Assembly (NCBI GenBank): GCA_008632985.1
Contig: QPGO01000010.1
Span: 434,001-498,000, forward strand
Source of the DNA: Psammoneis japonica
Taxonomy: Eukaryota
Direction of reading: 5' to 3'
Length of the DNA stretch: 64,000 nucleotides
Part shown: positions 19,796-54,393 of the stretch, one piece after another
How positions within the stretch are numbered: the first letter of the stretch is position 1
How the letters are laid out: the number at the start of each line of letters is the position of its first letter
Notes under the pieces: model-generated
What the model was told of the DNA's origin: nothing
The model's input: only the letters and a program-made list of their open reading frames with translations
The model's database searches: none
Made by a program: the position numbers and the translations under genes

Positions 19796-22628
19796 TCGTT
19801 TTGTATCGCTTCACCGAGAGACATACTCTTCTTTTGCTTCGTTCTCAGTTCAGAGACGGCGAGTGTTCGTCTACAGTATTTGTTTATAAGTAAAATTAGG
19901 GCCTATGGTGTATCATAGCGGGCACGGGCAGCAGCGGCAGCATCGTCCCCAGCGCTTGAAAGTGCCCGGGTCGTGCGTCGTGCCCGGGTAAAACCGGTCT
20001 GTCCTCTACCTTTTGGCATCTGTGTAAAAGTCGATTTTGTTTCCAAAATCGATTGGTTTTTCACTATACAATGCTTCTTACGTCTTCTAACATTGTCAAT
20101 TGACATGTTCCCATGCCTGTATTTGCCAGGTTCACGGTTCTGAACGCCATTGCTACTGTCGCAAGAAGGGCCTTTTTTCGCTCCAAGAGGACAGACCGGT
20201 CGTCAGTAGAATTCTACGTGGCGATGTACCGAGAAATTTACACAGTTTTTTTTGCATCCGACGTCAAACGCTTCGCCATTATCTCTCGCATCGGCAGCAT
20301 GGTAAGTCCATAATACACACTCTTATCGAATCATATGGGCCCATAAGGTCTCATTTGTTGTTGTTTTGCCTTGTTACTCACATTGTGTATCCAGGTGTTT
20401 GTCACCAGTCGCACGGACACGGTGCAACTTCTAACTTCTTGTTGTCGTCGGTGGAGAAATCAACGAAAGGCTGCGGCGATATGTCATGCTGGACTCTAGT
20501 AAATACATAAGCTGGATATCCTACTGTGCAAGTTGGTGATGCAATGATTCTGTTAAAAAGAAAAAGGCAGGAATGCATGATACAGGTACATTGTTTGAAA
20601 TGTATGGTTTGCTGCTTGCGGGGTTGTGGGGGGTGCTAATGCATCTAAAAGTGTTTCATCGTCACACAGCATATCCTCCAAATTCTCTGGGCACTACCGT
20701 GTGACATTTTTAATGGGTTTCCTTTGCAGTTGGACATGTCATCAATTTTCTTCCGGTGGGAAAAGGCGATGGATTCGCTGGCATGCTCAATGCCGCCGTC
20801 TTCAAATGGTAAGTTCATTTTTTGAAAAGCCTTGTACGCCAGACGCACCAATGTCTTTGTCTTACATGTGTCAGGTTGTACTGCTTTTAGGACATACTCC
20901 TGGTCAAATAGGAACTCCCAAAAATGAGGGCTTACCTGGGTCTTGACGTCGAAAGAAAAATTCGGGTGGGGGTGGCGTGGATTCCGATCGCGGTATCATT
21001 GATGTCGTTGTTTCGTAAGAGACTAGGAAGGGTAGAATTGCGCCCAAAATTGCATTGACTTCAACATCAAAACCTGTCTTCTGTCTCTCCTTTCCCCTTT
21101 ACGAAATTGACAACCTTCGGGTGGTTTCTTTCCGAGCTTGCTTGGCAACCAGATCACGGGTGCGTGCTGCTGTTTTGGTCACAGTCTTTCGTTGACGCGA
21201 CGATCGAAGAGGATACACCATGGTGGGCTGGATGTGGCGGTTGCGTTGACGCAACGAACGACGAGGACACACCATGCATGGGGCTTGATGCAGCGGTTGC
21301 AGCGAGCAATAGGGTTTGTTGGCTTGTCGGAGGTACAGTACAGCATAATTTTGAATTTGAAATGGACAAAGTTAAAAACATATGATAACGTAGATAATTA
21401 ATGATCAAAAATCTGTGTAAATCTCAAACCGTGGATTTTTTTTAGAAAATGACGATGTGCCGTCTTTGGCCCCCAATTGTGCCGTGATGTAACGCTCTTT
21501 TATCCCACTGTTTTCACAAGGATCTCTGTTGACCTTCTGACCGATGCTAGTAGATAGGGTTTGCATGTGAAACAACGGGAAGCCACTGTTAGAGTGGTTT
21601 TACACAGTTTGCTCTTGCAAGAGGACAGACCGGTCGGAAGAGGACAGACAGGTTTTTTGCTTGTACCGGGGGTAGATTGGGTGGATCACGAACGTGAATG
21701 GAATGGAAAATGGCGGGAAAACCTTCAACCTTCAACCGAACCGCGAGCTCAAGGCGCCGCTCAGAACGCGAAGCCGCGATCTCATTTCTGCGTCAGGATT
21801 TGTTTTTCCGATTGCACAACATGTGCACGACCGGACGACTGCCGGATGTTGCAAGTCCAACAAGAAACAAGCGGAAGGGAACACAACATTCCAAACCAGC
21901 AAAGGAGACATTAAAGATTCGAGAATGTCAACCCAAGGGGAAAAATTGCAAGATCGCCGTCTCCTCCTTCCCCATCGTTTTGCCATTGAAGATGCTTCTC
22001 AGGACTCTCCTTGTTGTGAGCCTGCTTGCCAGTGGCGATGCGCAAGAGACAACACTTCGCAGATCAGATCCTCATCAGCCTGCATCGAATCGTTGCAGCA
22101 AGTCAGAGAGGTTGCAACGACTCAAGAATCACTTCAGTGCTCCTCACCATCGAGAGGTCTTGGCTCTCCTTGACAAGTGTCATCAACAAGATCCCGTCCC
22201 AGCAGACTGTGGCGGATGTCATCCCTGTGAGCAATGCTGCAGGCTTGACAACAATCCAAAGTTGGGACCGGCGCAAGATGCAGAACATGGCAGCAGGGAT
22301 GAGATGGCTCCCATTCGAATCCGGTTCGTCACGGAAATCCTTGAAGAGCAGCCAGGTGCAACAAGCGATGAAGCTGATGTTGCAAAAGGGGATGCAATTG
22401 TGAATGAGGTGCTTCCCACAATGCCACAGGAATGGTCCTCGCATCTGTCTGTGTTTCCTGCTGTCGGCCGACTGGCCGTGAACAATGAGACGTGTCTCGG
22501 AAATTGCGCAAAACGCAAAACTCGACTCATTGCAGCCGTTCTTGGAGACTGGCATTGATGATGCGGACATCGCAGTCATTGCACAGGGATCTGTTTGCAA
22601 CGAAGGCTTGCCAGCCTTTGCCGGTCCA

Positions 22629-22904
22629 TGACAGAAATTGAAGGCAAATGGCAAGAATTCAAACAATGACTCCTTGCTGCTGTTCAAATGGCAGATGAGT
22701 CTCTGCTCAGAGACCATCACAGGAGCCGAAAGACGTGCAAGTCGGCACAATCGGGCTGCTGTTGTTATTCTTGTGAGCCTTGTGGCTCGAAAGCAAACTG
22801 CATCGCGCGCAAACGCGCGGAACTAAAGCACACAAAACTGTGCACGGCAAACTAAACAGCACGCGACATTTCGCGTGCACCTAAATCCTGTTCAAATCCT
22901 GTCA
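22629..22904 (-). repeat. 3' LTR (276 bp)
   Basis: TGACAGAAATT...AAATCCTGTCA; direct repeat of 26137-26412 with short terminal inverted repeats. Confidence 0.92.
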
Positions 22905-23289
22905 CTCCCCAGTTTGCTTGAGGAGTCACAGAAACAGATTCGACTTCGGATTGACCAAAGAACTTTGGAGTCAAAGCACCAAAACATGAGGAGACAAGAA
23001 AGGATCAAGATCCGAGAGCAACGTTGCATTTTCCAAGTGGGTCATCTTGAGATGAGCTGCGTCTCCCCAATTGCAGATGCCGTTGTGTTTTTCAAAGCTC
23101 AAGGCACACTTGGGATCTTGTGGGATTCCACATCCGCGCTTGCAATGGAAGGAGCAAAGCTTGGTCTGGTTGACAATGTTGAACGGTGGGGCAACATTGC
23201 AGGCGGCATGGCGTTTGCATGACTCGGGGAACAGAGCAAGCATCAGTTCAAAGGCACAAGTGGTGGTCTTGTGTTCCACCAATCCGACT

Positions 23290-24338
23290 GCATCTCCTGA
23301 GAGACTGATCCAATTGGAGAAACGAGTCTCAAGGTGCAAGCCTTCGGGGATCGGATTGGAGCAAGACATCTTGTGGTGCAAGGCTGCAGATGTCTGATTG
23401 GGGCAACCAGTCCCGTGCTGCAAGACTTCTGGGATCCAAAAGGATTTGCCAGTGTTGTGACACGAGTCTTCGGGGATCCAATCAGGAGGCCAAGTCTTGA
23501 GGTGCGAGACTTGGGGGATCCAATCAGGAGGCCGAGTCTCGTGGCACAAGACTTGAGGGATCCAATCCGGAGGCCGAGTCTTGAGGCATGAGACGTGGAG
23601 GATCCAATTGGGGGGCCCGGTCTTGAGGCACGAGACGTGGAGAGTCCAGTTGGGAGGCCTGGTCTCAAGGCACGAGACTTGGGGCATCCGATCAGGGGGC
23701 CCAGTCTCGATGTACGACACTTGGGGCATCCAATCAGGAGGCCCAGTCTCGAGGCACGAGACTTGAGGCATCCAATCAGGAGGCCTGGTCTCGAGGTGCG
23801 AGACTTGGGACATCCAATCAGGAGACCTGGTCTCGAGGTACGAGACTTGGGGCATCCAATCAGGAGGCCCAGTCTCGAGGTACGAGACTTGCGGCATCCA
23901 ATCAGGACGCCCAGTCTCGAGGTACGAGACTTGGGGCATCCAATCAGGAGGCCTGGTCTCGAGGTACGAAACTTGGGGCATCCAATCAGGAGGCCCAGTC
24001 TCGAGGTACGAGACTTGAGGCATCCAATCAGGAGGCCCAGTCTCGAGGTACGAGACTTGAGGCATCCAATCAGGAGACCTGGTCTCGAGGTACGAGACTT
24101 GGGGCATCCAATCAGGAGGCCCAGTCTCGAGGTACGAGACTTGGGGCATCCAATCAGGAGGCCTGGTCTCGAGGTACGAGACTTGGGGCATCCAATCAGG
24201 AGGCCTGGTCTCGAGGTACGAGACTTGAGGCATCCAATCAGGAGGCCTGGTCTCGAGGCACGAGACTTGAGGCATCCAATCAGGAGGCCTGGTCTCGAGG
24301 TACGAGACTTGAGGCATCCAATCAGGAGGCCTGGTCTC
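23290..24338 (-). repeat. 42-bp tandem array inside the LTR element (about 21 clear plus about 4 degenerate units)
   Basis: Unit GAGGCCTGGTCTCGAGGTACGAGACTTGGGGCATCCAATCAG; reads ETRPPDWMPQVSYL in frame with the gag/pol remnant. Confidence 0.92.
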
Positions 24339-26136
24339 ATGGTGCGATGCTTGGAGGATCCGAAGACAACAAAGCTGCTTGGATGTCCTGAACTCCCCAT
24401 CTGATGAACCGGTTGAACTGTTGTGAACAGATTCAATGACGGGAAAAGGAGGCTCCCCATCAGGAGACACGAGAAGCAAGTTGTCACCTCCATCAATTCC
24501 CAAACGAAGACTGTGAAGGGTGACAGCGACAGAAGTCGACACGTGGAGGTTGGCAGCACGTGGTTTGCAGGGTGCAAAGACTGCAGCTTTGGAAGCCATG
24601 GGTGGAGTGTCCCAACTGGTCTCGAAGTGCGGGCCTGTGCAAGGGCTGCAATCCTGCACTGGGCCGAGGTTGCTTGCAGGCGGGTTGGTCAAGACATGCG
24701 GGGTGCGACTGACACCACTTCTAGGAGACACCTGAGTGGCGGCACAGTGCAAGGCTGGTGTCAAAATGGCACTGGGTTCATCTGGTTTGGATGGCAAGGG
24801 ACTCGGCACAGGTGCGGAGGGTGCTGCGCCAGTGGCTAGAGAGGTCAAGCAGTCCGGACCAAGGCGGCAGTTGCGAAATTCCTCGGGTGTGAGCAACTGG
24901 GGTTCATTGGTCACATCATCACCGTTGCAAACTTTGACAAAGCAGAAGCTGATCAAAGCTGCTAGGAGGTTTCTGTGGGTCTGTGGCAAAGGCACTACAT
25001 TGGCCCGTCTCTGTAAGTGAGGGCGTCAATTTGGGTGGGTAAGAACGTGAACAATTCCTCGCACGATTCAATCCCGTTGATGGACAGGGCAGAACGAAGA
25101 GGGCTGTCATCGTCTTGATTGAGCACAGTGCCTAGAATGTGTTTGAAGCTTTCGGTTTGTTGCTGTCACGTGAGAACCATGACGGAGGACGGTGCAGTGG
25201 AAACAAAAGACAGGAACCAATCTAGAGCGCGATCTTGACTCGGAGTTTTGACTTGGAACTTGGCTTGAAAAAGACGTGACTTGAGCTGGACTTGACTTGA
25301 AATCTTGGACTGTCTTAAAATCAGAAGTCGCCGGGTTGTGCCATCCCGTTCGTTGTCAAGTGCTAAACTTCCTGTCCGGTCCGTAGAGTTGTGCCGGCAC
25401 GTTCGAACCCGCAGCCAGTGGTGCTTTGGGTTGCTTGCGAGCGGAGTGGCGGGTTGCAAACCCCTGCAGGCAAGCTGACCAGAGGTGGACAAGACCCCCG
25501 AACCGTTCTTATTTTGTGTCGGTTGGATTTCCCGATCAGGCTGGCCAGTTGACGCAGGTGTCAGGCGCTGTGGACGAACGAACAAACGCGGGAAAGCACC
25601 CTCGCCCCAACGCAGGCTGCAATCATGGCCACTTGCTCTCACAGTCATCCTCGTGGACCTGGTGGAACTGCAGAGCACCAGCAGTCCGGGGTAGATCAGG
25701 TGCAATGGACTCGGTGTGCTTGTAGAGTGGCAGCAAAACCGCAGTCCGAAGAGTGGGCACAGGTTCTTGGCCGTGAAGACATGCACACATGTGCATGTCT
25801 TCAGCGATGCAGATCCTTGAACATGTGGGGTTCTTGACTGTTAACTGATGAATGGGTGCATCAAGGGATGAGGATCAAGGATGGACTTGGATGTGACCGT
25901 TGAATGCATGTCTTCAGTGATCAAAGGCAGTGTGATCAATCCAGACATCCAGCGGTGAGGAGACTTGACGGTGACGTTAACTTCCTGCCGATGCCCTGGT
26001 GTTGAATGCGCGTAGACTTGCCGATGTATGTAGAACATATACGGAGGTCCACGCAGAATTGAAATGGCGTCGTTGGTAAATCAACGACGACGATGGCGGT
26101 TGCTCAATGGGTTGACAATGAGCAAGACTGTCAATC

Positions 26137-26412
26137 TGACAGAAATTGAAGGCAAATGGCAAGAATTCAAACAATGACTCCTTGCTGCTGTCTAAACAGC
26201 AGATGAGTCTCCACTCAGAGACCGTTGCAGGAGCCGAAAGACGTGCAAGTCGGTGTGATCGGGCCACTGTCATTGTTCTTGTGAGCCTTTTGGCTCGAAA
26301 GCAAACTACATCGCGCGCGAACGCGCGGAACTGAAGCACACAAAACTGTGCGCGGTAAACTAAACAGCGCGCAACATTTCGCGCGCACCCAAATCCTGTT
26401 CAAATCCTGTCA
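26137..26412 (-). repeat. 5' LTR (276 bp)
   Basis: Direct repeat of 22629-22904, followed by TSD GTCCA. Confidence 0.92.
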
Positions 26413-28049
26413 GTCCATGCAACCGTGATCAGTTCGACCGACCTGCATTTGGAATTGTGACTTTCTGTTTCAATGCGGAATTCGATCCGACCGACGACGA
26501 TGATGTCTTTGACCTCTCCCTCATGGCCCTGCATGAAATTGGCCATGCGCTGGGCTTTCTGAGTCAATTGACTCCCCACTTCCGGCAGCGTCACATCCCG
26601 GACTGTGCCTTGTGTGAATGGAGTTGATCAAACCATTCCATTCGCTGGTGAAAACACACTCAAGGCATTTGTTATGAGCCCCGGTGCATCTGGGCAAGAG
26701 CGCATGCACTGCGAAGTCGTGACGCCAAAAGTTGGGGAAGTTGCTCGCAATCTGTTTGACTGTCAGTCGCTGGATGGAGCTCGTCTTGAAAACTGACCAA
26801 CATCATCCGATTGTGCCAGCAACCATTGGGATGAACACTTCTTTTTCTCCGAAATCATGTCAGCCATTCTGAACCAAGCTGGTGACGGACAGGGGGTCGT
26901 GCCATCACCCCTCACCCTGGCCTTTTTTGAAGACAGCGGATGGCATTTGGCATCCCATGAAAATGCAGGACTGGCGGGCTGTGGCCTTGGGCTCGGTTGT
27001 GACTTCGTGGAGGGTGATTGCATCGTGAACAATCAAGTGCCAGAATGTGGTCAGGGCATCTTCTGCAGTGCTGCGCACAATCCCAGTCCCGACGTTGCAA
27101 ATCCGCAGCACTGCGATCCAACTCACATGAGCTTCTGCCACTGTGATCTAATTGACCCAACATTTCTTGCTGCGAACAGAACTGCGAATGATCGCACTTC
27201 ACATTTTTCGAATCCCAATCTGGTCACTCTGGCTGACACACAGCACAACTTTTGTCCTTTGCCATTGCTCCATGCACCATTGGTTCCAGACCAACCTGGC
27301 AGCTTGGACCTGGTGGACTGCACAGATGAAATGACAGACACTGGAAACTCGGTTTTTGAGGACGAAACGCATGGAGCCAACAGCAGGTGTGTGAGTGCAG
27401 CCATTCCAGGCTTTGTTGCACGCCCAGCCTGTCTTCCCATTGCATGCGACAGCGAGAACTTTCAGGTTGTTGTGGGTGGCAGGGCGTGTGAGTTTGATGG
27501 TCAGATGCACACAATCTCCCCGCTCCCGGCATGCCAAGGGGTCCCAGAGAGTGCATTTGTTTGTCCACGGTTGTCTCTGGTTTGTCCCAATCTGTTTGGC
27601 TGTCCTGGTGCATGTTCGGGTTGTGGAGTTTGCAACTGCAGTGTCACCCCACCGAGATGTGAGTGCTTTAGCTCAGCCGATGTCGACAGCAGCTCTCCTC
27701 TTTGCGCGGCGGCGGCAGTGCAGCTTCCCACTCCTCCAACTGAATCGCCTTCAACGTCTGGAAGCCGTGCTGCGGCTGCACTCTCTTTGCTGAATGCAGT
27801 CGTTGTTTGTTTCCTTTTCAATGCATGGGTTTGGTGATTGGCGAAACAGATCTTACAAGACACCAGCCGCCGGACGGCCTGTTGCAGCAGAGGTCATTTT
27901 TGTGCATCTTCACCAGTTTCTTCATTGTCGCGAATGTACAGCCAGTTCAACCTTTTTAAAAGATGTCAAACAGATCATCACTCGTGCCGTGACTTTCATT
28001 GAAATGACCGTTTCAAGCTTTCGTTGGCAATTGACAAGCAAATTGCTGT

Positions 28050-28834
28050 AAAAGGAATGCCACAAGGTGCCACATCACGATGAAATCACATCACCTCGCC
28101 CAGGGACATGAGAGATGTTTTTCCTAGACAAGGAGTCAAGAGCCCAGAAAGAAATGAGTGGCACGGCAGAAGGGTGCATCAAAGAAGCTGCTGCTGGAGC
28201 AGATGAGCAGAAGGGGCACGTGACGCATGGCGCACAGGGCATTTTGTAGAGGGGGTGGTGGAAGTGCCCATGCAAAAGGCAGAGAGGAAGTGAAAAGCAT
28301 GAGAGGAGAGGAGAGGTGTGGTGTTGAAACTGAGAGTCTGGTGAGTTTCCCACTGAGAGGGGGGGGAGGAGTGGTGGGCACTGCTCAAGCGATCACTGGC
28401 AAGTTGATTCTGGGCAAAGTCAGCAGAGGGAAGGAGAGAGGAGGGAGAAGTGAGCACATGGAGGAAGGCAGAGCAGGAAGTGCCAGAGTCTTGCAAGGCA
28501 GACAGCAATGGCCATGGATGCTGGGGCTGAGAGCTGTGGCCCCACCCTGCCACCAGGGCAAAGGGGCCGGGTGGAAGCACATGACGAATTGAGCCACCAG
28601 CTGGAGCAGTGCACCAGCTCGCCACACATGGTGCATGCCATGCACAATGCACACACCAAGAAAATGGTGGGCACCACACAGCAACAGCATGCAAACATGT
28701 GGAGAAGAGTGTTTGCTTTGCTCGTGGACCTTTCAAGCAACAAAGCACAAGCAGGTCAGCTGGGCTGGCCTCCAGTGTTGCTGGAAGAGAAAAGGCAGGT
28801 TTTTTGAGGCCACAGCAGCCAAAAACCAGCAGCT

Positions 28835-28865
<31 letters not shown>

Positions 28866-29845
28866 TGAACAAACAATCAAAATTGGTGAAGCCAATTTTC
28901 CGTCAAATGTGACAAACAAATGACACAAGCAGCTGAGGCAGAGCCACACTCAATCAGACATTTGTGTCCAACTGTTTCAGTGCAAATGGCAGGCACAACA
29001 AGGTTGACCAAAGTCAGGAGAATGGGGCTTTCAAGAGCAAATGAATGAATGAACAAATGAATGAATGAATTGAGTGAGTGAATGAATGAATGAATGAATG
29101 AATGAATGAACAAAATTGTGCAGCCAATGTTCCATGAAATGTGACAAACAAATCTGAGGCAGCTGAGGCAGAGCTGCTGCTCAGATGCTCATGTCCAAGC
29201 TGCCGCCACAGCAAATGGCGGGCACAATGGCATTGGCCAAAATCAGGGTTGAGACTTTTGCAGCAGCACACGTGCAAAGAGGAGGGCTTGCTTTGCACAT
29301 GGCCCTTCTTGCAGAGGCAAAGCAGGTCAGCTGGGCTGGTCTCAGGCATTGCTGGAAGAGAAAAAGCAGGCTTTCTGAGGCTTCTGCTGGACAGCAGCCA
29401 AGAACCAGCAGCTTTTCTCTTTCTGATGTGCTCCAGCTTCAGGTGGGACCTTGAGCTGCTGAATTGTGACATGAAGAGTTTTTTGGATCGTGCAGCATGT
29501 CGCGCACGCAGGTGGCTGCACAGTGTGACAATCTGTGAAATTGTCCCATGCTTCCAGTTTTGCAAAGCCAAAGGCTTTCTATTTTCAACATCCACAAGAA
29601 TGAAAATGTGCTGGGCACATTCTTTGATGTTTGCAGAACACACCCGGGTGAACTGTCGATGATGCACTTCAAGTGTGAAGGAGGAGATGTGTTCATAAAA
29701 ATCACCTCTTTTTCTGTTGGCAATCATTCACATTTTCATCGCTTGACAAATTTGCTGTGGAGCTTGCACATGGAATTCCACGGGCCTGATGTCACATGGA
29801 GCCCCGCCCAGGGCTGGAACCTGTCTTCTTTCAAACAACGACGAA

Positions 29846-29894
<49 letters not shown>

Positions 29895-30200
29895 GCACAC
29901 ACACGCACACACCTCCTGTTGGCAACCTGGAAAATTTGTGGCATTGGCAAGCTGGCCAGAGAAGCACACAAATGAAAGTGTTTTTTGTTTCTTTTGCCCC
30001 GGCGAGCAATGAGCAATGATGGCCAGACCTCACCAAAGACATTTTTTTCATGCAAGCATGAGCTTTTTCTTCTTGTTTTGTGTTGGCTCACCACAAAACA
30101 AAAAGGAAACACTGCATTGTTTGCGACCTTGACTTCTCCCACAAAAGCAACCCATTGCTTCATTTGTTTCTCACTGCTCGTGAATCAGGAACGTGAATTG
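28050..30200. repeat. TpA-depleted degenerate repeat region with internal duplications and microsatellites
   Basis: 28750-28810 resembles 29320-29380, and 28880-28945 resembles 29110-29175. (CT)n near 28840 and 29850; (TGAA)n at 29041-29110; very few TA. Confidence 0.65.
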
Positions 30201-30622
30201 AAAAAAGGCGGAATCGCTCGCGGCGACCCACGGTCATCGCACTTGGGTCAGCGTGTCGCGTTCGGTGTTTGCACGTGAATCACGAACGGGAATGGAAAAT
30301 GGCGGGAAATGGGAGGTCTGACGAAATGACGATCCGCGAATAACCGACCGCGAATGCCAAACCCAAATGCCAATCACACATCTGCGTGTTCGCACTTTGC
30401 ACGATTGGTTGTCGAGATGTTGGAGGCCTTCTGTATCCTGTATCTTGCATGCAATCCAACAAGAACAAGCGGAAGGGGACACATCCATACCAAGGAAAGG
30501 AGTTGATACATAGAGTCATCTAATTGCAGCACACGAGATCTCTCGTCGTACCGCAGCGTTTCCTGAATTCAAACAGCTATTGCAAGATCGCTGTCTCCTC
30601 CTTTCCCGTTTTGACTGTGACG

Positions 30623-33073
30623 ATGGAAATCTGGCTCCTGTATGTTCTCAGGGCTCTCCTCTTTCTGAGCCTCTTTGCCAGGAACGATGCACTTGAGAAA
30701 CTCCTTCGCAAAAAAGATCCTCATCAGTCGGTGTCCGTGTCGAAACGTCGCAGCAAGGCGGAGAGGTTACAACGACTCAGGAATCACGTTACCGCTCCCT
30801 ACCATCCGGAGGTCCGGGTTCTCCTTGACCAGTATCATCAACAAGATCCCATCCCGGTAGACTATGGTGGACGACATCCCTTTGAACGACGCCGTGGGCT
30901 TGACGATAATTCAAGGCTGGGTCCCGTGCAAGATGTAGAATACGGCAACAGAGATGAGATGGCGCCCATTCGAATCCGGTTTGTCACGGAAATCCTTGAA
31001 GAGCAGCTAGGTGCAGCAACCGATGAAGCCAACGTTGCAAAAGGGGATGCGATTTTGAATAAGGTACTTCCTGCCATACAGGAGGAATGGTCCTCACACT
31101 TGTCTGTATTCCAAGCATCTGGTGCACTCGCAGTCAACAGTGAGACGTGTCTTGGAAATTACGAAAGAATCCCGCTATTACAGTCTTTCTTAGAAACTGG
31201 TATTAGCGATGCAGACATTGCACTTATTGCACAAGCAACAGTCTGCGACCAAGGCCTGTTGGCCTTCGCCGGTCCCTGTAACCGTGATCAGTTCGACCGA
31301 CCTACCTTTGGAATTGTCTCGTTCTGTACTAATGCGGACTTCGACCCGACGGATGACGATGATGTATTTGATCTCTCGCTTGTGGCCATCCATGAAATTG
31401 CCCATGCATTAGGTTTTCTCAGTCAGTTGACTCCCTACTTCCGAGATGCGACGGGGGAGCCGCTGACGCCGCGAACGGCAAGTGGCGGCGTTGCATCCCG
31501 GACGGTGCCTTGTGTGAATGGAACTGATCAAAACATCCCATTCGCCAATGAAAATACGCTGAAGGCGTTCATTACGACCCCCGGTATATCTGGCAAGGAG
31601 CGCCTTCATTACGAAGTCGTGACTCCGAAAGTGAGGGCAGTCGCTCGGAATTTGTTCGATTGTCAGTCGCTGAGTGGGGCTCGTTTTGAAAACCGACCAA
31701 CGCTTCCTGATTGCGCCGGAAACCATTGGGATGAACGTTTCTTTTACTCGGAACTCCTCTCGCCCCTTCTAAACCCATCTGGAGATGGTCAGGGTGCCGT
31801 GTTGTCACCTCTGACCCTCGCTTTTTTTGAAGACAGTGGATGGTATCGTGCGTCTTACGAAAACGTTGGACTGGCAGGGTATGGCCTTGGACTTGGTTGT
31901 GACTTTGTGGAGAGGGACTGCATCGTGAATGACCAAGTGCCAGAGTATGGTGAAGGCATCTTCTGTAGTACTCCGTACAATCCAAATCCGGACGCCGCAA
32001 ATCCGCAGTACTGCGACGCAACGCACACGAGCTTTCGTTACTGTGGTCTGATCGATCGAAGATTTCTAAATAACTTTACTCCGGATGATCCAATCTTGTA
32101 TTTTTCGGATCCTAATCTGATTACTGTGGCCAACAGACAGTATGACTTTTGTCCTTTGCCATTGCTCGACGATTCATTTGTGCCGGATCAACTTGGCAGC
32201 TTGGACTTGGTAGACTGCACAGATGAAATGACCGACGCTGGAAATTCTGTTTTTGAAGACGAAACGTATGGAGCCAATAGCAGGTGCGTGAATACAGCCA
32301 TTCCTGGCTTTGCTGCACGCCCAGCCTGTCTTCCTATCGTGTGCGACAGCGAGAACTCTCAAGTTATTGTGGGTGGCCGGGTATGTGAGTTTGATGGCCA
32401 GATGCACACAATCTCCCTGCTCCCTGCTTTCCAAGGAGTTCCAGAGAGTACATTTGTTTGTCCACGGTTGTCGCTGGTTTGTCCCGATCTGTTTGGCTGT
32501 CCTGGTGCGTGCTCGGGTCGTGGAGTGTGTAATTACAGTGTCACTCCACCGAGATGCGAGTGCTTCAACTCAGCCGATATCGACAGTAGCTCTCCTCTTT
32601 GCGCGGCAGCAGCAGTGCAGCTTCCCACCCCTCCAAGTGATCAGCCTTCGACATCTGGAAGCAGTACCCCTACTGCACAACCTTCGACATCTGGAAGCAG
32701 CACCCCAACTGAACAGCCTTCGACATCTGCGAATAATACTGCGGGAAGCAGCACACCAACTGAGCAGCCTTCGACATCTGGAAGCAGCCCCCCAACGGCA
32801 CAACCTTCGACAACCGTAAGCAGTACCCCGACTGATCGGCCTTCGACGTCTGGAAGCAGCACCCCAACTGAACGGCCTTCGACGTCTGCGAGTAGTACTA
32901 CCCCGACTGGCCCGCCTACAACGCCTGGAAGCAGCACTCCGACGGAAGCGTTCACATCACCTAGAAGCAGTGCTCCTACGGAATCACCCACCCCGTCTGG
33001 AAGCCGTGCTGTTGCTGCACTCTCTTTGAACACAGTTGTCTTTTTGTTTCTCGTCAATATATGGGTTCGATGA
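30623..33073 (+). CDS. Leishmanolysin/GP63-like zinc metalloprotease (peptidase M8), probably GPI-anchored
   Basis: Signal peptide (MEIWLLYVLRALLFLSLFA), HEIAHALG zincin motif, HWDERFF..ELL, LTLAFFEDSGWY, EGF-like CPGACSGRGVC, S/T-rich 12-aa repeats and a hydrophobic C-terminal tail. Confidence 0.93.
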   Translation: MEIWLLYVLRALLFLSLFARNDALEKLLRKKDPHQSVSVSKRRSKAERLQRLRNHVTAPYHPEVRVLLDQYHQQDPIPVDYGGRHPFERRRGLDDNSRLGPVQDVEYGNRDEMAPIRIRFVTEILEEQLGAATDEANVAKGDAILNKVLPAIQEEWSSHLSVFQASGALAVNSETCLGNYERIPLLQSFLETGISDADIALIAQATVCDQGLLAFAGPCNRDQFDRPTFGIVSFCTNADFDPTDDDDVFDLSLVAIHEIAHALGFLSQLTPYFRDATGEPLTPRTASGGVASRTVPCVNGTDQNIPFANENTLKAFITTPGISGKERLHYEVVTPKVRAVARNLFDCQSLSGARFENRPTLPDCAGNHWDERFFYSELLSPLLNPSGDGQGAVLSPLTLAFFEDSGWYRASYENVGLAGYGLGLGCDFVERDCIVNDQVPEYGEGIFCSTPYNPNPDAANPQYCDATHTSFRYCGLIDRRFLNNFTPDDPILYFSDPNLITVANRQYDFCPLPLLDDSFVPDQLGSLDLVDCTDEMTDAGNSVFEDETYGANSRCVNTAIPGFAARPACLPIVCDSENSQVIVGGRVCEFDGQMHTISLLPAFQGVPESTFVCPRLSLVCPDLFGCPGACSGRGVCNYSVTPPRCECFNSADIDSSSPLCAAAAVQLPTPPSDQPSTSGSSTPTAQPSTSGSSTPTEQPSTSANNTAGSSTPTEQPSTSGSSPPTAQPSTTVSSTPTDRPSTSGSSTPTERPSTSASSTTPTGPPTTPGSSTPTEAFTSPRSSAPTESPTPSGSRAVAALSLNTVVFLFLVNIWVR

Positions 33074-38800: not shown

Positions 38801-39073
38801 GCACAAACTTTCCTCTAAGAAGTCAGAAAATATAATATCATATGCTGCCTCCATGGAAACCGAGTCGGTAGTCTACTTTATCGTATCTCTCTCTCTTTCT
38901 CTCCGTCTATCTCGCCTGGACCGTAATTTCTTACCACACTCGGGCGTGCTCACAATGCCGTTAGCACAGGGACACTCACGACATGTGGTGAGTCACCAAC
39001 GGCATGTTCTTTTGCCTTGCATCATGGTTTCGTGTTTTGCCCACCGTGTTCTTTTGTCAGAAGATGATGAACT

Positions 39074-39207
39074 GAGAAGCACACCAGTTTTGTCGGGACT
39101 TTCTGGTGATGAGACGACAGCTGTCTCACACGTCTTTAACAATCTCTCACATGGGTGTCTGTTCTGAAATTCACAAGCATTGACGACCATGTGGTGACTG
39201 GCAAATC
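39074..39207 (+). pseudogene. Truncated duplicate of the 5' UTR/start of the iGluR-like gene at 48532
   Basis: GAGAAGCAC..AGTTTTG...GATGAGAC..AGCTGTCTC...CTGTTCTGAAATTCACAA.CATTGA aligns to 48500-48618. Similarity stops where the TA-depleted TE block starts. Confidence 0.75.
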
Positions 39208-39449
39208 GAGCAGCATTCTTGAAAATCAGAGGGGGGGGGGCAAATTTTGGGTGTCTTGCCCACTCATGGTTGCATTGCCATCAGAGTCCATGTGCTGGGG
39301 GTTCCAACACAGGTTTCCAAAAAATGTTTCTTGCAGGCAGTCTCGATTTGCAATGGTTTGTCATCCCTCGACATTTAATTTTCACCTCACACAGAACACC
39401 CCTGCTTTGCACAGGTGCTGGGAACATGGAAGTTCAACACAACAAAAAA

Positions 39450-40950
39450 ACTGGTGAGAAAAATGCTTGATGCCAACAGCACCTTTGCTCTGAACAAACA
39501 ACACAAAGAAATTGCACAAAACAGTGTGGAGTGATTGCTGAATGCACACAGCTGCCCTGTTGCAGTGCTGCATCTCTTGCTGCTGGGTCTGTCTTTTGAG
39601 AAAGTCATTGGCAAGACTGTCACACAGAAGAGTTCACAAAGAGAAGTCCTTGATGATTCATGTGCCTTGAGGTGCACCTTTACAATCAGTGAGCACAACG
39701 TGCCTGTGCTTGTTTCTCAGCTTCTCAAACTCTTCTTTCTTTTCCAAGACACACCAAGACAGTCTTCTGGACACCATGAATGATTTTTTCTGAGGATGCT
39801 GGGGTTGCTTGACACTTCAAGTGACTTTCAATCTGTCTTTGGCATGCAGTTGCCTGGCTTGCATTGCACCTGAATGAAACAGGACAAAGCATCAGGCAGT
39901 CACACCCTGCCAGCTTCCTTTGCGTGGTGCTCCATTTGACTCACATGCCGTCCTTCACCACCTTCCCTGCCACATCCCACACCCCTTTAAAGTGGCATTT
40001 CTGTGCAAACCAGCAAGCAACTACAACCCTGTTGACTGTGCTTGCAAGTCTTGCCATTCTCAAAAAGTTTGGGTTGCACTTGCACTGTGGCCCACAGCTG
40101 TCCATCCACACTGCAATGCACTTCAGGTTGATGCGTTGCTTCTTGAAATCACACTTGCAGTGTTGGACAGAGACAAGGCATGCATTGTAGAAAGCATGGT
40201 CACTCTTCTCACCTTTTGATGTTGTTTTGCCAAAGAAGTGCCACAAACGTCACATTCTTTGATTCACCATTTCTTGTTTGCACTGTTGTGCTTCACTGCA
40301 ATTGTTCTTGCAGAGTGCGGGACAACAAAGATGCAAAGGACAGCGTGGACATCAAATTGTTGGTGAGGTGCACTTGCAGATCACATGCATTGGAGAAGTT
40401 GGTAAAAATCAGCAGCTCCTTGCTGGCAAAGGCATGGGTGTCAATGTGTCTCATGAAATTGATGAGTTCAGTCTCACAGCAGTGCTTTCCACACTCTTTC
40501 AGCTGCATCAGCAGTCACTCTGCAGCTGTTTTTGCCAGAAGCTCAGTGTCCATCAGTTTAATCTGTGCACTCTGTTCACCTTTCACATTGGCCCCCCATC
40601 TTTCAGTGCCAGCAGCATTCCTTTGCAGGGACATTGATGTTGCACTCAGTGAGTGCTGCACACTCTTGCAGCTTCTTCACAGTTTGTTGACTCCACAATT
40701 CTGACAGCCCCTGTGTGTGCATTTCCAAGGGATTGGCTTTGGTGGGTGGCCTCCAACCTCAGTGCAAAGCATTGGCTGTTCCTCTGCCAGATGGCACACA
40801 GCTTTAACCATGGACTTGCAGCCTCCATTTTCTGGCAGTGAAAAAATGTTCTCCATGCCAGATCCATCATCTTCATCCTCCCTCATTTGTGTGTGCGCAA
40901 GTTGAAAGCACAGTTCTTTGCTTTTTTACAAGCAACTCAGTTGCTCTTCA
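39450..40950 (-). mobile_element. Decayed DDD transposase, Sola2-like
   Basis: Fragments on the minus strand, reading Tyr back in for Cys/His: KC...GCQNCG, ELLIFT(D)FSNA(Y)DL, SDHAF(Y), IAVWMDSCGPQ(Y)KC..NF, WFAQK(Y)HFKGVWDVAGKVVK. This resembles the Sola2 pattern DFAENY / SDGCA.QYKN..NF / FFAT.HGKG..DG.GG.VK. Confidence 0.6.
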
Positions 40951-41309
40951 ATGCTTTGTTCAGCACACTCGTGCACTTTTCTAGAGCCCAGTCTTTGGCA
41001 AATCCACACAGGAATGCTCAGACAGATCCTGAGCACACAGGCAAATGCAACCTCAGAGTTGTTCCTTGCCTGTCATGCTGCACAGCACTGGGTGACAGAG
41101 CTGAAAAAGTGTGCAAAACCAAAACAATTGAGCTGGACATGATTGGTCAAACCAACCAGGCAAGGCAGCAAGTGCAGCAACAGGCAGCTGGGTTGCTGTC
41201 CTCAAGGTCAGCCAAGGGATGGCAAGCAACCACCAGCACATCACAACGAGCACCAAGTGCTCCAAATCCAAAAAAGCAACGGCAGCAAGAGCCTCCAAGC
41301 CCACCCCAA

Positions 41310-41460
41310 AACCAGTTGAACCCAAGTGCCTTGTCTGCAACATGACTGTGTCAAATGCATTGAAGTGTGATTTGTGCACTGCGTGCACACATGCAAGCTG
41401 CTTGTTGGCAGATGAAAACAATGAGAGATTTTGTTGGGATTGCAGCAACGACTTGCAATG
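41310..41460 (+). pseudogene. PHD-finger-like remnant inside the TE block
   Basis: KCLVC...LKCDLC...THASCL...FCWDC matches C4HC3 spacing; followed by TGA stops; lies in TA-depleted DNA. Confidence 0.45.
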
Positions 41461-42059
41461 ACTTGAAATTGCTGCAAACAGTTTGTGGAGCGCAACTGTC
41501 ACGATCACAAAAGCCAGGATCATTTTGGTCTGTGTGAGAGTTGGTGGGAAGTTGTGGTTTTGGTGTGCAAGAAAGATGGGTGCAACCGCAAATGGAAAAA
41601 GAATGACAAGAAAAAAGCATGGTTGTGCAACGGAAAAAACCAAGGGTGTTGCTGTGGGATGGTTTGTTGTGTGGGAGGATGCTTTGAGCAGGCTGTGCCA
41701 TTGGAAGGATGTGGTCACAAGCAAGGCGCCGCACTGCAACTGAGGTCAATGCACCAGCTTGTTTGGTTGGTGTGGAACAGAATTTTGTTCAGGCAGTGCA
41801 GGATTTCTGTCAAATGCAACAGCACTCTTTGTTGCAGTTAGAAATGAAAGCAGAAACTGTGGCGCAACAGTTGGAATTTGCTGCAGCAGGTGACTTGAGC
41901 ATCTGTCGTTCCCTGTGTTGGGAATGATCCTCCACATTGACAACAAGTTGATGCTGGAAAGGCAACATGCTGCAGCTGGGGTTGTGGAGTGGCTGTTTTG
42001 ATGATTGAGAAATGAAGTGTGATGGCATCAGCATGCTGCAATTGGGGATGTGGAGCAGC

Positions 42060-43385
42060 TGCACAAAGGGTGCAAGGTGGCCAAGTGCACAAAATTGCAA
42101 AGGGTGCAAAATGGCCAAGGGCACAAAATCTTTGAGAGCACAAAATCATGAAGGGCACAAAATCATGAAGGGCACAAAATGATGGCTGATGGGAAAAATC
42201 ACAAAGGGCACAAAAAAGCAAAGGGCAAAAAATGGGAAAGGGTGCAAAATCACAAAGGGCGCAAGGTGGCCAAGGGTGCAAAATCACAAAGGGCACAAAA
42301 TGGCCATGAGCACAAAGTTGCAAAGGACCCAAAATGGCTGAGGGCACAAAATCACAAAGGGTGCAAAATGGCTGAGGACAAAAGATGCAAAATGGCTGAG
42401 AGGGCGCAAAATCATGAAGGGCACAAAATGATGGCTGAGGGCACAAAATGGCCAAGGGCACAAAGTGGCTGAGGGCAAAAATGGGAAAGGGCACAAATTC
42501 ATGAAGGGTGCCAAATGGGAAAAGGGCAAAAAATCACAAAGGGTGCAAGGCAGCCAAGGGCACAAAATCACAAAGGGTGCAAAATGGCCAAGGGCACAAA
42601 ATTGTTGAGGGCACAAAATGACTGAGGGCACAAAAAATCACAAAGGGTGCAAAATGATGGCTGAGGGCACAAACCCACAAAGGGCACAAAATGGCCAGCA
42701 CAAATTCATGAAGGGCGCTGAGTGGGAAAGAGCACAAAATCACAAAGGGCACAAGGTGGTGGCCAAGGGCGCAAAATCATTGAGAGCACAAAATGGGAAA
42801 AGGCACCAAATCATGAAGGGCACAAAAAGACGGCTGAGGGCACACAATTGCAAAGGGCACAAAATGGCAGAGGGCACAAAATGGGAATGGGCACAAAATC
42901 ACAAAGGCCACAAGGTTGCAAAAGGCACAAAATCTCAAAGGGTGCAAAACAACCAAGAGCACAAAATGGGAAAGGGCACAAAATTGCAAAGCACACAAAA
43001 TCACAAATGGCACAAAATGGCCAAGGGCACAAAAGAAGCATGTTGAGGGCACACAATGGCTGAGGGCACAAAATCATGAAGGGCACAAAATGATGGCTGA
43101 GGGCATGAAACCAGAAAGGGCACAAAGTGGCTGAGGGCACAAAATCACAAAGGGCACAAGGCTGCAAAGGGCACAAAATCACAAAGGGCGCAAGGGCACA
43201 AAATCTTTGAGGGCACAAAATGGCTGAGGGAGCAAAATCACAAAGGGTGCAAAATGATGGATGAGGGCTGAGGGCACAAAATCACAAAGGGCACAAAACG
43301 GTCAAGGGCACAAAGTGGCCAAGGGCTCAAATTGGGAAAGGGCACAAAATTGCAAAGGGCACAAAATGGGAAAGGGTGCAAGGCA
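42060..43385. repeat. Degenerate array of short GGGCACAAAAT/GGGTGCAAAAT motifs (probable subterminal repeats)
   Basis: Dozens of AGGG(CA/TG/CG)CAAAAT motifs with variable 5-15-bp linkers, ending near AGAGTGCACCCTC (about 43413). Confidence 0.85.
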
Positions 43386-43414
43386 GAAAATCAGAAGATC
43401 AGAGTGCACCCTCT

Positions 43415-46400
43415 TGACCAGACAGCCTGGTCTGGTGTGATGTCAGGAGCCACTCCATTCTTGACCACATTCTTGGCATCTGCAGGTCGCTTTTGCTTTT
43501 TGGATGCACCCATGCTTGGCGACATCAAAGAAACATTTCTCAAACTCTGCTGGTCCATGTTGAGCAGCTTTGGAAGTTTGTTGAGCAGACCTGCACTGGG
43601 TGCTTGTCCAAAGAGCCCTCGCCACCTTGGAACATTTTCCAGTGCACCACTCTCCAGCACATTGTGTTTGGAGCCAGTCTGGGGTTGGATGAAGTGAGCA
43701 CTTGTGGAGGCCCAAGAAGTGCATGGGATGAAGCAGCTTCAAGCTGTGGTGCCCTCCTCTGCAGCAATCATTGCTGCACCTCAACTGTGCCCCCTGCTGC
43801 TCCTTCTGTTCAATGAACTTACCAGGCCATTGTGGTGTGTCACAGCCATGACTCATTTGGGCCATGTTGCTTGAGCAAAAATTCTGGTGGAGAGCCATGT
43901 TGTTGCACCCTTTGGCATTGCCAGTTGTTTCATGACATGTGCTTGAAAGCAAGTGTGGGAGCCAACCAAGACACAGCATGTTTGCCAAAAGATCCATTCT
44001 TTCTCTTGCAATGTTGCAGTGCATTTCTGCAAACATCTCTCTCAGTGCATGCTGTGGCTCCTGGTTTCCACTCAGGAGCACTTTGCTCTTGTTGCTTGTC
44101 TTCAGAAGGGTGTGCAGCCACTCCAAGTGAAGAGGCCACAGGCTGTGGTTTTGGCAAGACTTGTTGCCAAGATTGCCCAAGGTGACAACTGTGGGCTGGG
44201 CCTGCAGGTGGCCTGTGTTGTTGTCACAAAGAGCAGAGCAACAAATGCAGTGAAACCAGAAGGAGGCAATCTCATTTTGCCCAGCTCTCTCAGAAATGTT
44301 CCTTTGGAAGGCACCACTCCACTCGCTTCACTTCTGCCATCATTCAGTGTTCAAAGAATTGCAAACCTGCTCATTTGTGTTGAGATGTTGTTTTTCATTG
44401 TGCAACCATTGGCAAGACATCACAAATTCAGGGCCCCAAAACATCCCTCCTGATGCAATGAACCAATGAGAAACAGCACACATGCATGGGAGGGAATTTA
44501 ACCAGGTCCAGCATGTGCAGCATGGGGTGGATGGGCTCAGGGCCAACATGACCCATGTGACTCTTTTTGCCTTGTTCATTCATCTCAAGGCACAGTGGAT
44601 CATGAGAAATGTGACTGGCAGCCATGCTTGTTTGCTGTTTTTGGAGTTCCAGTTTGGCTGCAAGAAGCCTTGAAAGACAGCAAGGCAGGTGGTGCTTTTT
44701 CCCCATCACGGCCAACTCTTCCTCCACATGTGGGGCAACTTCTTAGTTGATTTCATTTCCTGAGTGGCCTGGGAGTTCCAAATCTGCACTTCAGTTGCCA
44801 GCTGGTCAAAGAAGAACATGTCAACGGCTGGTTGACAACTCAGAATTGTTCCAGCACAACCACAGCTGGGCCTGCACCCAATGCTCTGGCTGTTCCTGAA
44901 AAAAATTAGAGTGGGCAATTCCTGGCAAAACAAGAGAGGTGCACAGGGAGGCTGAACAAGACACCAGCAGTGGAAAGAACAGTGGGGAGGGGGCAACATC
45001 TTTGACAAAGAAGAAAGTGAAGGGTGGTCAGGTGTGTGTGTTTGTTGGTTGGAGCTCATCTTTTTTCAGCAGTGCTGTCCATGTCCTGACATGTCAGCAT
45101 CAAGCCACTCCACAGCTCAACCTCATGGTGGTCAATGAGAGCCAAACAAGATTGTGGGAAATGATGTTGCTTGCATCATGTCTGGCAAGCTCTGATTTGA
45201 CTGTGTCATTCTCCAAGCACTGCCAGAGATCTGGCTGGTGACTTGCCAACCACTGCCTTTGCTTGGCCAGTGCTGCCCCCCTGCATGTTGCCTCATTTGA
45301 AAGCCAGGCAAACAACAGGAGCATCAACCAGTGCTGCACACTCTCTTGTCAAAGACAGCGCCCTGGTCACAAACACTGCTCCTGCCCTGGGCTCCCACCA
45401 AATCTGCTGCTCACATGAGGATCCAAGTGATTTTTGTGCCTCTGGTGTGCCAGCAAGTTGGTCACAGCATCACCTGCCTCTCGATGGCCAACAGCTTTTT
45501 TTTTTTTTTGACAAAATGCTCTCAGATGCCTGCACACCCAGGTGCAGAGAAGCTTGTCACTCTGCAAAAATTGTGTGCACATGGCACACAGCAGCAGCGT
45601 GGCAAAACAGATTGAACACCCAAGAATCTTGAGACAGATTGCTCCTTTGCACAGAAAATGACAGAAAAAAAACAAGAAAGTGGCATGACACACACCAGAT
45701 TCAGAGAGCAAAAGTTGTTTTTGGCAGCATTTTGAAATTGTGACTGAAGTGACTGCCATGCAGTGTGCCAAGAGCCCACACCAGTTTGTGGCTGTCACTG
45801 TCCTCAGCAAGCTCTGACATTTGTGCACTTGGAGATGGCAGGCACTGCCAAAATGCATCAGGCAAGACAGCTCTCAGCCAGAGTGCACAAAGTGTTGAGA
45901 AAACTTTGTGTGAGACACTTGGCTGCAAGTGCCACACAGGCTGCCAATTTTTGGATGCTCTTCACAGCTCTGCCATCATCACAAAATGCTCCCACATGAT
46001 TTGGGCATCTTGGGCAGCATTTCTTCCTTCTCTTTGCCATGAAGCCCTGTTCAATCTGCACCCTGCTTCTCCAATGGATCCAACCCAACTGCCTGTGAAA
46101 GCCCCATTCCCCTGCAAAGAATCTCACAGGGTTGTGCTCACTGCCACCAAAGCTGGGAAGAAGCAGCTGCTTTGGCAAGCGAAACAAGCTTGCAAGAAGA
46201 GCTGTGCAGCCTTGTCAATGAAAACAACCTGTGGTGCAAACCAACTGCAAAGAGCCAAAATCTGTCATGTCTCCATGCAGATGTTCAAGATCCTGGAAAT
46301 GGGCATCCCAAAGGTTCAAAAAGATGAACTCAAGTTTTTGTGCCACCACTCAGATTGATGTTGGTCGTCAAACAACCAGGCCATCACAAAGCAGACCAGT

Positions 46401-47790
46401 GATGAGTGAGCTCATGGTGAACCCCACAGGGCAGCACATGTTTTTTTTTTCTGAAAATGAAGACCATTTGAGCAAAATGTGGCTTCCCACCCTGGGAAAT
46501 CTGCTTGCATGCATTGACTGTGCCAAACAAAGAGAGTCTGTCAATGAAGAGGTGCTTGCCTTGCTTGTTTTGAGCAAAGCTCCCTTCTTGCAAGCACCTT
46601 CCTTTTTGGGCAAGGAAATGGGATTTCAGGCTTGTTCTCCCAAATTGGAACAATGTGCTTGTGCATGGCTCTGAGGAAATGGCCCAGGTGAAGAGTGTTG
46701 CTCACAGCAATGCTTGAGTGCACAACAGCTGGGCTAAATTCCCAAAAATGACACCTTTGAATGAACAAAATTTTGTCATTGAAGAAATTTGCAACCCCTT
46801 TCATGATGCCTCTGTGATGATGAGTTTGTGCAGGGGAAGAGGAAATCAAGGAGACATTGAAAGCACTGCCAGTGGCAAGCTTCTGGTTGAAGATGCAATG
46901 ACAGCTGGCAGGACATGGCAAAACACAAGATTTCTGGGTGGGGGAAATTGGGCTCATGTGCTGAAAGCCATGCACCAAAAAACAGGTTAAGATCCACTGC
47001 CCAACCAGAAAAAAGTGCGAGATGTTGCGCACACATTGTGAGATCTGTGGCTGCCCCACCACTTCTCTGCTTTGTTCCCACACCCCTGCACATGAGAAGT
47101 GACCATTGGGGGTGAGGGTGGGAGTGTGCATCAATCCACACTGCTGCTGCACTGCAGCAGTTGTCCTGGTGGTGTGAGAAAGGAGATGAAAGCTTCATCA
47201 GCTTGTGTGCCAAAAAGAGCCTTGAAAGCCAAGCAGATCATCTGTCATGATGATGATCACCACCGCAATTGTGCATCCTCTCACATGTTGGCAGTTTGCA
47301 CAATGTGTGCATGACTGCTGTTGTGCCACACATGACTTCCCACTCATCTGGAGAGAACAAATGAGTCTCAGATTTGCACCCTTGTTCATGGCAGACAACC
47401 ATCAGCTGGGGTCACCACTGTCACATCCTCCTTGGCTGCCATGGCTTTCTTCAGAGAACTGTCCCCCCATCTGCTGCAACCAGCCACCTCCAGGCCCGCC
47501 AACAGTGATTTCAGAAATCTCACACTTTGAAAAGAGTGGTGCAAGCTTTGAGTGCTGAGATTCTCCCTCTGAGAGTGAGACACTTTTTGAGATGAAACAG
47601 AACGCACAACAAGCTCCTGAGAGGTTTCTTGGATGACTTTCATGGTGACAACTGCTTTGCAAGGCACCAACTCTGTGTTGGGTGTTGTTTGAGTGCAACT
47701 CAAAGTTGCCTCCACGATTTGATGATCAGAGCACCACAAATTTGGGTCTTTGTCATTGGCAAAATGAGCACACCTCATCATCAGCTGCTT
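43415..47790. mobile_element. TpA/CpG-depleted decayed repeat or TE of unidentified family
   Basis: Almost no TA or CG; many overlapping Cys/His-rich, Tyr-free ORF fragments; no family motif recognised. Confidence 0.5.
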
Positions 47791-47793
47791 CTC

Positions 47794-47912
<119 letters not shown>

Positions 47913-54356: not shown

Positions 54357-54393
54357 CGCAGGTGTGCACGTGTAACGCCGCGAAAATCAGGCA

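Follow-up and report, generated by a model that had tools for sequence, protein, structure and literature searches.

Three zones of the 64,000-nucleotide stretch of Psammoneis japonica DNA analysed here (the window) are almost devoid of the dinucleotide TA, and the explanation that we favour, with a probability of about 0.8, is a hypermutation process that operates at the DNA level, is confined to particular regions and is specific for TpA steps. Its specificity, its direction, its use of both strands, its action after integration and the sharp borders of its domains were demonstrated in this window. In the process envisaged, TpA steps would exchange one T:A pair for C:G, on either strand, yielding CA or TG, and because a single hit destroys the target site, every site would be changed once only. 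A slower decay of CpG to TpG or CpA takes place within the same domains.

Two copies of a gene for an M8 leishmanolysin-like peptidase are present in the window, one of them intact and the other split by an LTR element. The following features were located:

30623-33073 (+): intact parent gene, M8 leishmanolysin-like peptidase, an open frame of 816 aa
21681-22628 (+): 5' piece of the M8 pseudogene, located by blastn against the parent
26413-27840 (+): 3' piece of the M8 pseudogene, located by blastn against the parent; it includes the Tyr-free ORF 26857-27837
22629-26412 (+): LTR element, read as non-autonomous, 3,784 bp, with direct terminal repeats and a target-site duplication
22629-22904 and 26137-26412 (+): LTRs of 276 bp each, with TGACAG...CTGTCA ends
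22624-22628 (left) and 26413-26417 (right), no strand: 5-bp target-site duplication GTCCA, read from the sequence and the alignment
23462-24338 (+): 42-bp tandem array of approximately 20 units (TRF: period 42, 20.9 copies)

The protein encoded by the intact gene matches PF01457 (E = 2e-35, 122.8 bits; the curated Pfam cut-off is 21), carries a Pro/Thr/Ser-rich C-terminal repeat and has the sequence HEIAH at the HExxH zinc site, the defining motif of the peptidase M8 family. This gene is not hypermutated. Its ORF contains 78 TA, the 500-bp bins across it show observed/expected (o/e) ratios of 0.47–0.74 for TA and of about 1 for CG, and its TA level equals that of the rest of the window. The named relatives of the protein are diatoms without exception (at most 44% identity), and an NSF-like AAA protein encoded at 54397-55872 (-) is 62–70% identical to proteins of Epithemia, Cylindrotheca, Mayamaea and Cyclotella, matches that identify the source of the window as a diatom. 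A protein atlas look-up with the Snf7 protein of the window was uninformative on taxonomy. The window is eukaryotic and has few introns.

The split copy, situated 8.6 kb upstream of the parent, reads as a dead local duplicate of this neighbouring M8 gene that lies within a mutated domain. Its identification as an M8 pseudogene, already made in a reading of the sequence alone (hereafter the sequence-only reading), was confirmed: PF01457 matches both copies (28.2 bits for the ORF of the pseudogene, over the cut-off of 21), HEIGH stands at the zinc site in the projection of the pseudogene, and the duplicate bears an in-frame stop, indels, a 13-codon gap and the 3.8-kb LTR insertion. The Pro/Thr-rich repeat of the parent is missing from it. 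In blastn comparisons, positions 21945-22630 of the 5' piece corresponded to 30579-31278 of the parent (75% identity) and positions 26413-27781 of the 3' piece to 31272-32678 (78.9% identity). Weak homology starts at 21681, where a short upstream match was found (21681-21720 with 30275-30309), and coding homology begins near 21992, preceded by approximately 300 bp that resemble the upstream flank of the parent. The homology thus begins some 350 bp upstream of the parent ATG, and a retrocopy origin was ruled out for this reason. Read depth in a public sequencing run showed that the pseudogene, which is host-derived, is single copy. The same sequence-only reading had also spoken of a captured host gene, a description that is not supported, in view of the short distance to the parent, the upstream homology and the finding that no transposon structure encloses the copy.

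TA steps have nearly disappeared from the duplicate. One TA is present in the 948 bp of the 5' piece (TA o/e 0.02, CG o/e 0.83), whereas 1424 bp of the 3' piece gave a TA o/e of 0.04 and a CG o/e of 0.63, with three TA in its aligned part, at 26673, 27149 and 27669. The 65 TA steps of the parent that could be aligned correspond in the duplicate to 30 CA, 27 TG, 1 CG, 1 TA and 6 other dinucleotides, whereas the remaining dinucleotides were retained at 56–76%, and CG at 41%. Given a retention of 0.65, the probability of keeping at most 1 of 65 TA steps is 3e-28. Classification of A>G changes by the 5' neighbour, on both strands, gave 60/130 for TA, 37/277 for AA, 41/309 for CA and 23/309 for GA, which means 46% per base at TpA vs 7–13% elsewhere (101/895; Fisher test, odds ratio 6.7, p = 2.6e-19). 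A near-saturating A>G mutation at TpA on both strands had been proposed in the sequence-only reading, which had named A>G rates in the AA, CA and GA contexts equal to that at TA as a finding that would speak against it; the rates in these contexts are lower, 64 of the 65 TA steps are lost, and the products are evenly divided between the strands (30 CA vs 27 TG). The specificity for TpA therefore stood, but adenine is not fixed as the attacked base, as T>C on the opposite strand looks identical. A second change, absent from that earlier reading, runs parallel to the loss of TA: CpG is also lost, with C>T at 52/246 before G vs 7–11% before other bases (p = 3e-7).

The strand affected varies at random along the gene: 33 runs of CA and TG were counted vs 29.4 expected (z = 0.96). 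This indicates that there was neither processive working along one strand nor a single edited RNA as the source of the copy. Differences of the TA type make up 60 of the 435 between gene and pseudogene; hence, a burst of mutation and a long-standing raised rate are inseparable from the pseudogene alone.

The consequences are visible in the encoded protein. The 326-aa ORF at 26857-27837 contains 0 Tyr, 11 His and 26 Cys, and the 11 Tyr of the parent (positions 408-638) that align with it are replaced by 8 His and 3 Cys, in full agreement with the earlier claim; the pairs of DNA words quoted in support of that claim were all located at homologous places (9/9). Over the entire duplicate, the 20 Tyr codons of the parent correspond to 11 His, 6 Cys, 1 Phe, 1 deletion and 1 apparently kept Tyr. 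This last codon is an alignment artefact (T, a 7-base insertion and AC), the real frame giving Cys. In order to establish the polarity of these changes, 100 homologues were aligned. Most of them carry Tyr, Phe or Trp at 10 of the 20 sites where the parent has Tyr, and the Tyr of DSGWY is present in 100/100. Of the seven columns in which at least 60 of the 100 homologues show Tyr, six are also Tyr in the parent and none in the duplicate, a result that goes against a His/Cys ancestor and upholds the earlier view that TA came first. Because the homologues keep Tyr, Phe or Trp, and because the reading frame of the parent is open and its TA content typical of the window, TA is, as judged from the alignment, the ancestral state, and CA and TG were derived on the branch of the pseudogene.

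The LTR element inside the pseudogene provided evidence on the stage at which the mutations arise. Six-frame Pfam searches of its interior outside the array (24340-26136) found no family, hence no gag-pol, and the rest is the 42-bp array, which is why the element reads as non-autonomous. Its family has a very high copy number (depth of 5e3–4e5 vs about 60 for single-copy DNA in the public run), and the element has a TA o/e of 0.21 and a CG o/e of 0.69. The two LTRs of an element are identical at integration. Here they show 89.6% identity: 28 of the 276 columns differ, 26 of them at YpR steps for which each LTR has CA, TG, TA or CG, and 2 elsewhere, and after RY coding, in which purines and pyrimidines are each merged, the identity is 99.6%. 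Among the step differences there are 7 CA/TG pairs, 6 cases of TA vs CA or TG and 6 of CG vs CA or TG. As estimated from the numbers of shared sites and of sites lost in one LTR, each LTR has lost approximately 75% of its TA and approximately 17% of its CpG, at rates per base of about 90 times background at TA and about 12 times at CG, figures that rest on small counts and give the order of magnitude. Since the LTRs have diverged at precisely these steps, the mutations arise in integrated DNA and not in an RNA copy. The CA/TG pairs were also considered as proof of a TA ancestor, a use that was rejected: a CG ancestor would produce an identical pair, and at 22704/26212, one of the seven, most copies of the family have CG.

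The tandem array within the element has the same character. Across 20 units, the cTAg site of the 42-bp unit is CA in 7, TG in 9, CG in 1, another dinucleotide in 3 and TA in 0, whereas the two CpGs of the unit are kept in 18/20 and 16/20 and lost in 2 and 4 (Fisher p = 1.5e-9 for TA loss vs CpG loss, calculated on tandem units that are not independent samples). A second TA, in the gTAc where units join, is still present in approximately 12 of them. Because tandem units are not independent of each other, the array was taken as supporting, not as decisive, evidence.

The depletion extends well beyond the gene copy, in zones delimited as follows:

21681-30340 (no strand): first TA-purged zone, 8.7 kb, comprising the pseudogene, the LTR element and a spacer
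27841-30340 (no strand): spacer block between the gene copies, TA o/e 0.05, CG o/e 0.40
38980-48300 (no strand): second TA-purged zone, 18 TA in 9321 bp
62460-64000 (no strand): third TA-purged zone, continuing past the end of the window, 1 TA in 1541 bp

Together, the three zones (19,522 bp) contain 73 TA vs approximately 832 expected from the density elsewhere, the rest of the window having 1895 TA in 44,478 bp. TA o/e is 0.01–0.11 in the zones vs 0.63 outside them, CA and TG within them reach 1.5–1.9 times expectation, and the window is bimodal for TA in 500-bp bins. The values for the second zone are 0.03 for TA, 0.12 for CG, 1.85 for CA and 1.90 for TG, and those for the third are 0.01 for TA and 0.20 for CG. 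The surviving 73 TA are mostly in the tandem array, and a flank preference is not interpretable from them. CpG o/e is 0.98 outside the zones, 0.63–0.83 in the pseudogene and the LTR element, and 0.12–0.20 in zones two and three, which are taken to be the older ones; thus, TA is lost first and CpG later. The borders are sharp to tens of bases and are situated 200–300 bp from the ends of the flanking genes. On the left, normal TA density ends at 21673 and the duplicated segment starts at 21681, so that the first zone begins within these few bases, and on the right it ends approximately 280 bp ahead of the parent ATG. The second zone occupies the gap between the Snf7 gene and a glutamate-receptor-like gene. 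As a control, 512 kb of metagenome sequence around M8 homologues, a sample biased to gene-rich contigs and transcripts, were divided into 1-kb bins, and 0/902 had a TA o/e below 0.2 (minimum 0.37) vs 32/127 in the window.

The targets observed are the LTR element, repeated pieces of the spacer (with a depth of up to 15,203 vs about 60 in the public run) and the host-derived single-copy pseudogene. Pfam searches of six-frame read-through translations of 38950-48401 returned only DUF6303 (E = 0.0074, 16.5 bits, against a cut-off of 25), and six-frame searches of the spacer (27841-30341) and the third zone (62460-64000) returned no family; six-frame Pfam thus found no transposon or viral coding remnants in the large purged zones. 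An RY-coded self-comparison for old repeats shared between zones recovered nothing beyond the gene pair, the LTR pair and a microsatellite. Repeat or foreign DNA as the target was consequently shown only for the LTR element and parts of the spacer, the other zones being without recognisable coding remnants. The domains are probably silenced chromatin holding repeats together with the DNA between them, with CpG methylation. Neighbours that are presumably expressed, including the parent M8 gene, would be spared, and the outcome would be an irreversible inactivation of the domain DNA. Because the parent gene is spared, targeting appears to depend on the state of the domain and not, as in RIP, on sequence homology.

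Several other explanations of the pattern were weighed. A change in the reverse direction, in which RIP-like C>T at CpA/TpG would have made the TA steps of the intact gene, has a precedent in that RIP is described as turning CpA into TpA (PMC2621366); it is contradicted by the outgroups, with Tyr, Phe or Trp at these sites, and the intact gene retains an uninterrupted 816-aa frame and the TA level of the window; we give this direction practically no credit. Editing of a transcript by an ADAR-like enzyme (A to I), followed by reverse transcription and integration, scarcely fits better, although the 5'-U preference of ADARs, as discussed in bioRxiv 10.64898/2026.01.13.699255, resembles the TpA rule. 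Hyperediting by ADAR or APOBEC shares with our case clustered transitions, a nearest-neighbour rule and action against mobile elements, but it uses RNA or single-stranded intermediates and hits one strand in runs, whereas here resident DNA was changed, with both strands of one molecule hit in random interleaving. Moreover, the LTRs diverged after integration, the tandem units diverged in place and the homology of the pseudogene reaches upstream of the transcript start. A systematic miscall of a modified base, in sequencing or assembly, was considered because the platform is unrecorded both for the window and for the public run (X1) with which it was compared, a run that may be the window's own source sample. 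Nevertheless, independent k-mer contigs from this run, at a depth of about 60, are identical to 21620-22656 and show 6 differences from 26387-28828. A strand-dependent miscall, once merged, would give many CG and many TA, whereas 1 of each was found in 65 sites with CA and TG alternating randomly, and ordinary substitutions and indels are also present in the pseudogene. This makes an artefact most improbable. In contigs of a second run (X2) only the intact M8 gene is represented; the pieces matching the pseudogene show 74–77 differences and hence belong to the contig of the parent gene. An untargeted context bias, by which TpA would change rapidly to TpG or CpA genome-wide and be masked by selection in genes, so that the zones are simply old neutral DNA, would agree with the lack of coding remnants in the zones and with a TA o/e already at 0.63 outside them. 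Stretches without an ORF of at least 250 aa (for example 19800-21670) nevertheless hold 9–24 TA per 500 bp, the borders of the zones are abrupt, and the young LTR pair, with its 2 background differences, is already down by approximately three quarters of its TA per copy; we therefore regard such a bias as very unlikely.

The remaining alternatives concern the chemistry. Pol eta prefers WA motifs for its errors, and in a scheme comparable with the second phase of somatic hypermutation, the processing of deaminated 5mC would recruit a Pol-eta-like polymerase, which would explain why TA loss and CpG loss share domains. AA, however, is not raised (13%, equal to CA), and TA is saturated while 60–80% of CpG persists in the pseudogene and the LTR element, which indicates that TA loss does not follow from what happens at CpG; in addition, the mutations reported for Bigelowiella natans are all at TpA. 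There is very little to be said for this scheme. The attacked base may also be thymine. Oxidised thymine mispairs with G, and a TET/JBP-type dioxygenase might modify the thymine of TpA steps in silenced repeats (to 5hmU and further oxidised forms), with mispairing or faulty repair leading to T>C, which fits the symmetric signature as well as A>G does. In dinoflagellates, a TET/JBP homologue is reported to make 5hmU, which is enriched in repeats and silences transposons (PMC11572971), and according to older work cited there thymine is replaced preferentially in TA and TC. As far as that account goes, this is a modification of repeats in the SAR lineage, silencing and TA-favouring, as is the case here for TA; it is, however, an epigenetic mark that also favours TC, whereas the diatom pattern is a record of mutation without TC. 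TpC is no target in the pseudogene (TC>CC 11/155, compared with TT>CT 15/156 and TG>CG 14/178), which is mildly contrary to a rule of the dinoflagellate type. No report of 5hmU in diatoms was found, and the authors of the B. natans study propose a deaminase. We consider the thymine route rather unlikely. For the TpA-specific hypermutation that we favour, an enzyme acting on DNA at TpA would be needed, and an adenine deaminase (A to I, read as G) would be the likeliest candidate by analogy with the ADAT2-like DNA adenine deaminase proposed by Mettrop et al. for B. natans (bioRxiv 10.64898/2026.01.13.699255), although we put this chemical step at somewhat less than an even chance.

A process of this kind has been described once, in 2026, and among the literature found our window gives the first sighting of TpA hypermutation in a stramenopile, as a new member of that kind; literature searches found no report of it in diatoms. 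The sequence-only reading had made no mention of this precedent. According to the B. natans preprint (bioRxiv 10.64898/2026.01.13.699255), a mutation-accumulation experiment gave 231 de novo mutations in two silent viral inserts, an integrated giant-virus region and a virophage region; 230 of them were A>G or T>C, and these invariably lay at TpA, at a rate approximately 1000-fold over baseline and in some lines only. The diatom pattern resembles these data in the nearly exclusive change of TpA to TpG and CpA on either strand, in being limited to certain regions, where rates exceed background by orders of magnitude, and in that a single-copy silent target is possible. The two cases differ in the host, a diatom here and a chlorarachniophyte (Rhizaria) there, and in the stage observed: in B. 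natans the process is in action and the targets are reported to retain 3.3% TpA, whereas the diatom offers a fossil record that is 97–99% saturated. In the diatom, a duplicated host gene and an LTR element are among the victims, and CpG is lost in the same domains; neither CpG nor diatoms are mentioned in the available text of the preprint. Fungal RIP is similar in that region-limited, both-strand, dinucleotide-specific transitions in DNA kill repeats and duplicated genes. RIP, however, changes C to T at CpA and creates TpA, which is destroyed here, and it mutates both duplicate copies, whereas here the parent, with its open frame and 78 TA, is untouched. Diatom transposons are reported to be CpG-methylated (PMC9998398), and decay by deamination of methylated CpG accounts for the CpG to TpG/CpA half of the pattern and for its location in repeat domains; the change of TA to CA or TG is beyond its reach, and TA loss outpaces CpG loss.

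These results have practical consequences. TA-purged domains defeat homology-based repeat finding, and they yield pseudo-ORFs that are Tyr-free, rich in His and Cys, poor in Arg and terminated only by TGA. The dating of LTR insertions by divergence is distorted, since 26 of the 28 differences between the LTRs do not behave in a clock-like manner. With regard to the biology, it is possible, although we advance it tentatively and with more doubt than conviction, that diatoms and chlorarachniophytes share an ancient, chromatin-guided base-editing defence in which every TpA in silenced domains would be rewritten alongside CpG methylation, permanently killing duplicated host genes and mobile elements, and whose agent may be a thymine-oxidising TET/JBP enzyme and not an adenine deaminase. 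Genes common to this diatom and B. natans, and missing from diatoms without TA-free domains, would be candidates for the enzyme. The end-state found in a diatom indicates that TpA hypermutation is not a quirk of a single strain, that it can reach completion and that host genes falling within a target domain are also hit.

In three TA-purged stretches, namely the second purged zone (38980-48300), the spacer between the two M8 peptidase gene copies (27841-30340) and the end of the window (62460-64000), the stop codons TAA and TAG were nearly absent because TA itself is nearly absent there. The stop codons that remain are almost exclusively TGA, and every frame of these stretches contains spurious ORFs 120-290 aa long. 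Two repeats of the second purged zone and three features located elsewhere in the window are as follows:

218-2890, Ala/Pro/Ser-rich ORF of 890 aa
42062-43390, degenerate tandem repeat array midway through the second purged zone (~70-74% identity among shifted copies)
47790-47950, long (CA)n/(TG)n microsatellite within the second purged zone
54010-54376, tandem duplication of 189 bp (95% identity)
54394-56956, minus strand, NSF-like AAA ATPase in two overlapping ORFs (54394-55872 and 55763-56956)

Microsatellites of this (CA)n/(TG)n kind may be seeded through the CA/TG enrichment that the mutation process generates. The two overlapping ORFs of the NSF-like ATPase suggest a short intron or an assembly frameshift. 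The 890-aa ORF contains internal tandem repeats of ~108 bp at 233-1267 and is overlapped by a TA-free antisense ORF at the window start. Another tandem repeat, Pro/Thr/Ser-rich, is located at the end of the intact M8 gene (32626-32947), with units of ~72-80 bp sharing 71-75% identity; it is missing from the M8 pseudogene.

Survival of TA was unequal within the 42-bp tandem array (23462-24338) of the LTR element that splits this pseudogene. The cTAg site lacked TA in all 20 units, and the junction TA (gTAc) between units was kept in ~12 of 20. A flanking-base preference of TAG over TAC may account for this, as may, alternatively, an effect of array turnover.

Depth in one public run was 5e3-4e5 over the LTR element (22629-26412), versus ~60 for the single-copy flanks. 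This LTR family must be present in the genome at very high copy number, and its copies would provide a large natural data set on the mutation spectrum.
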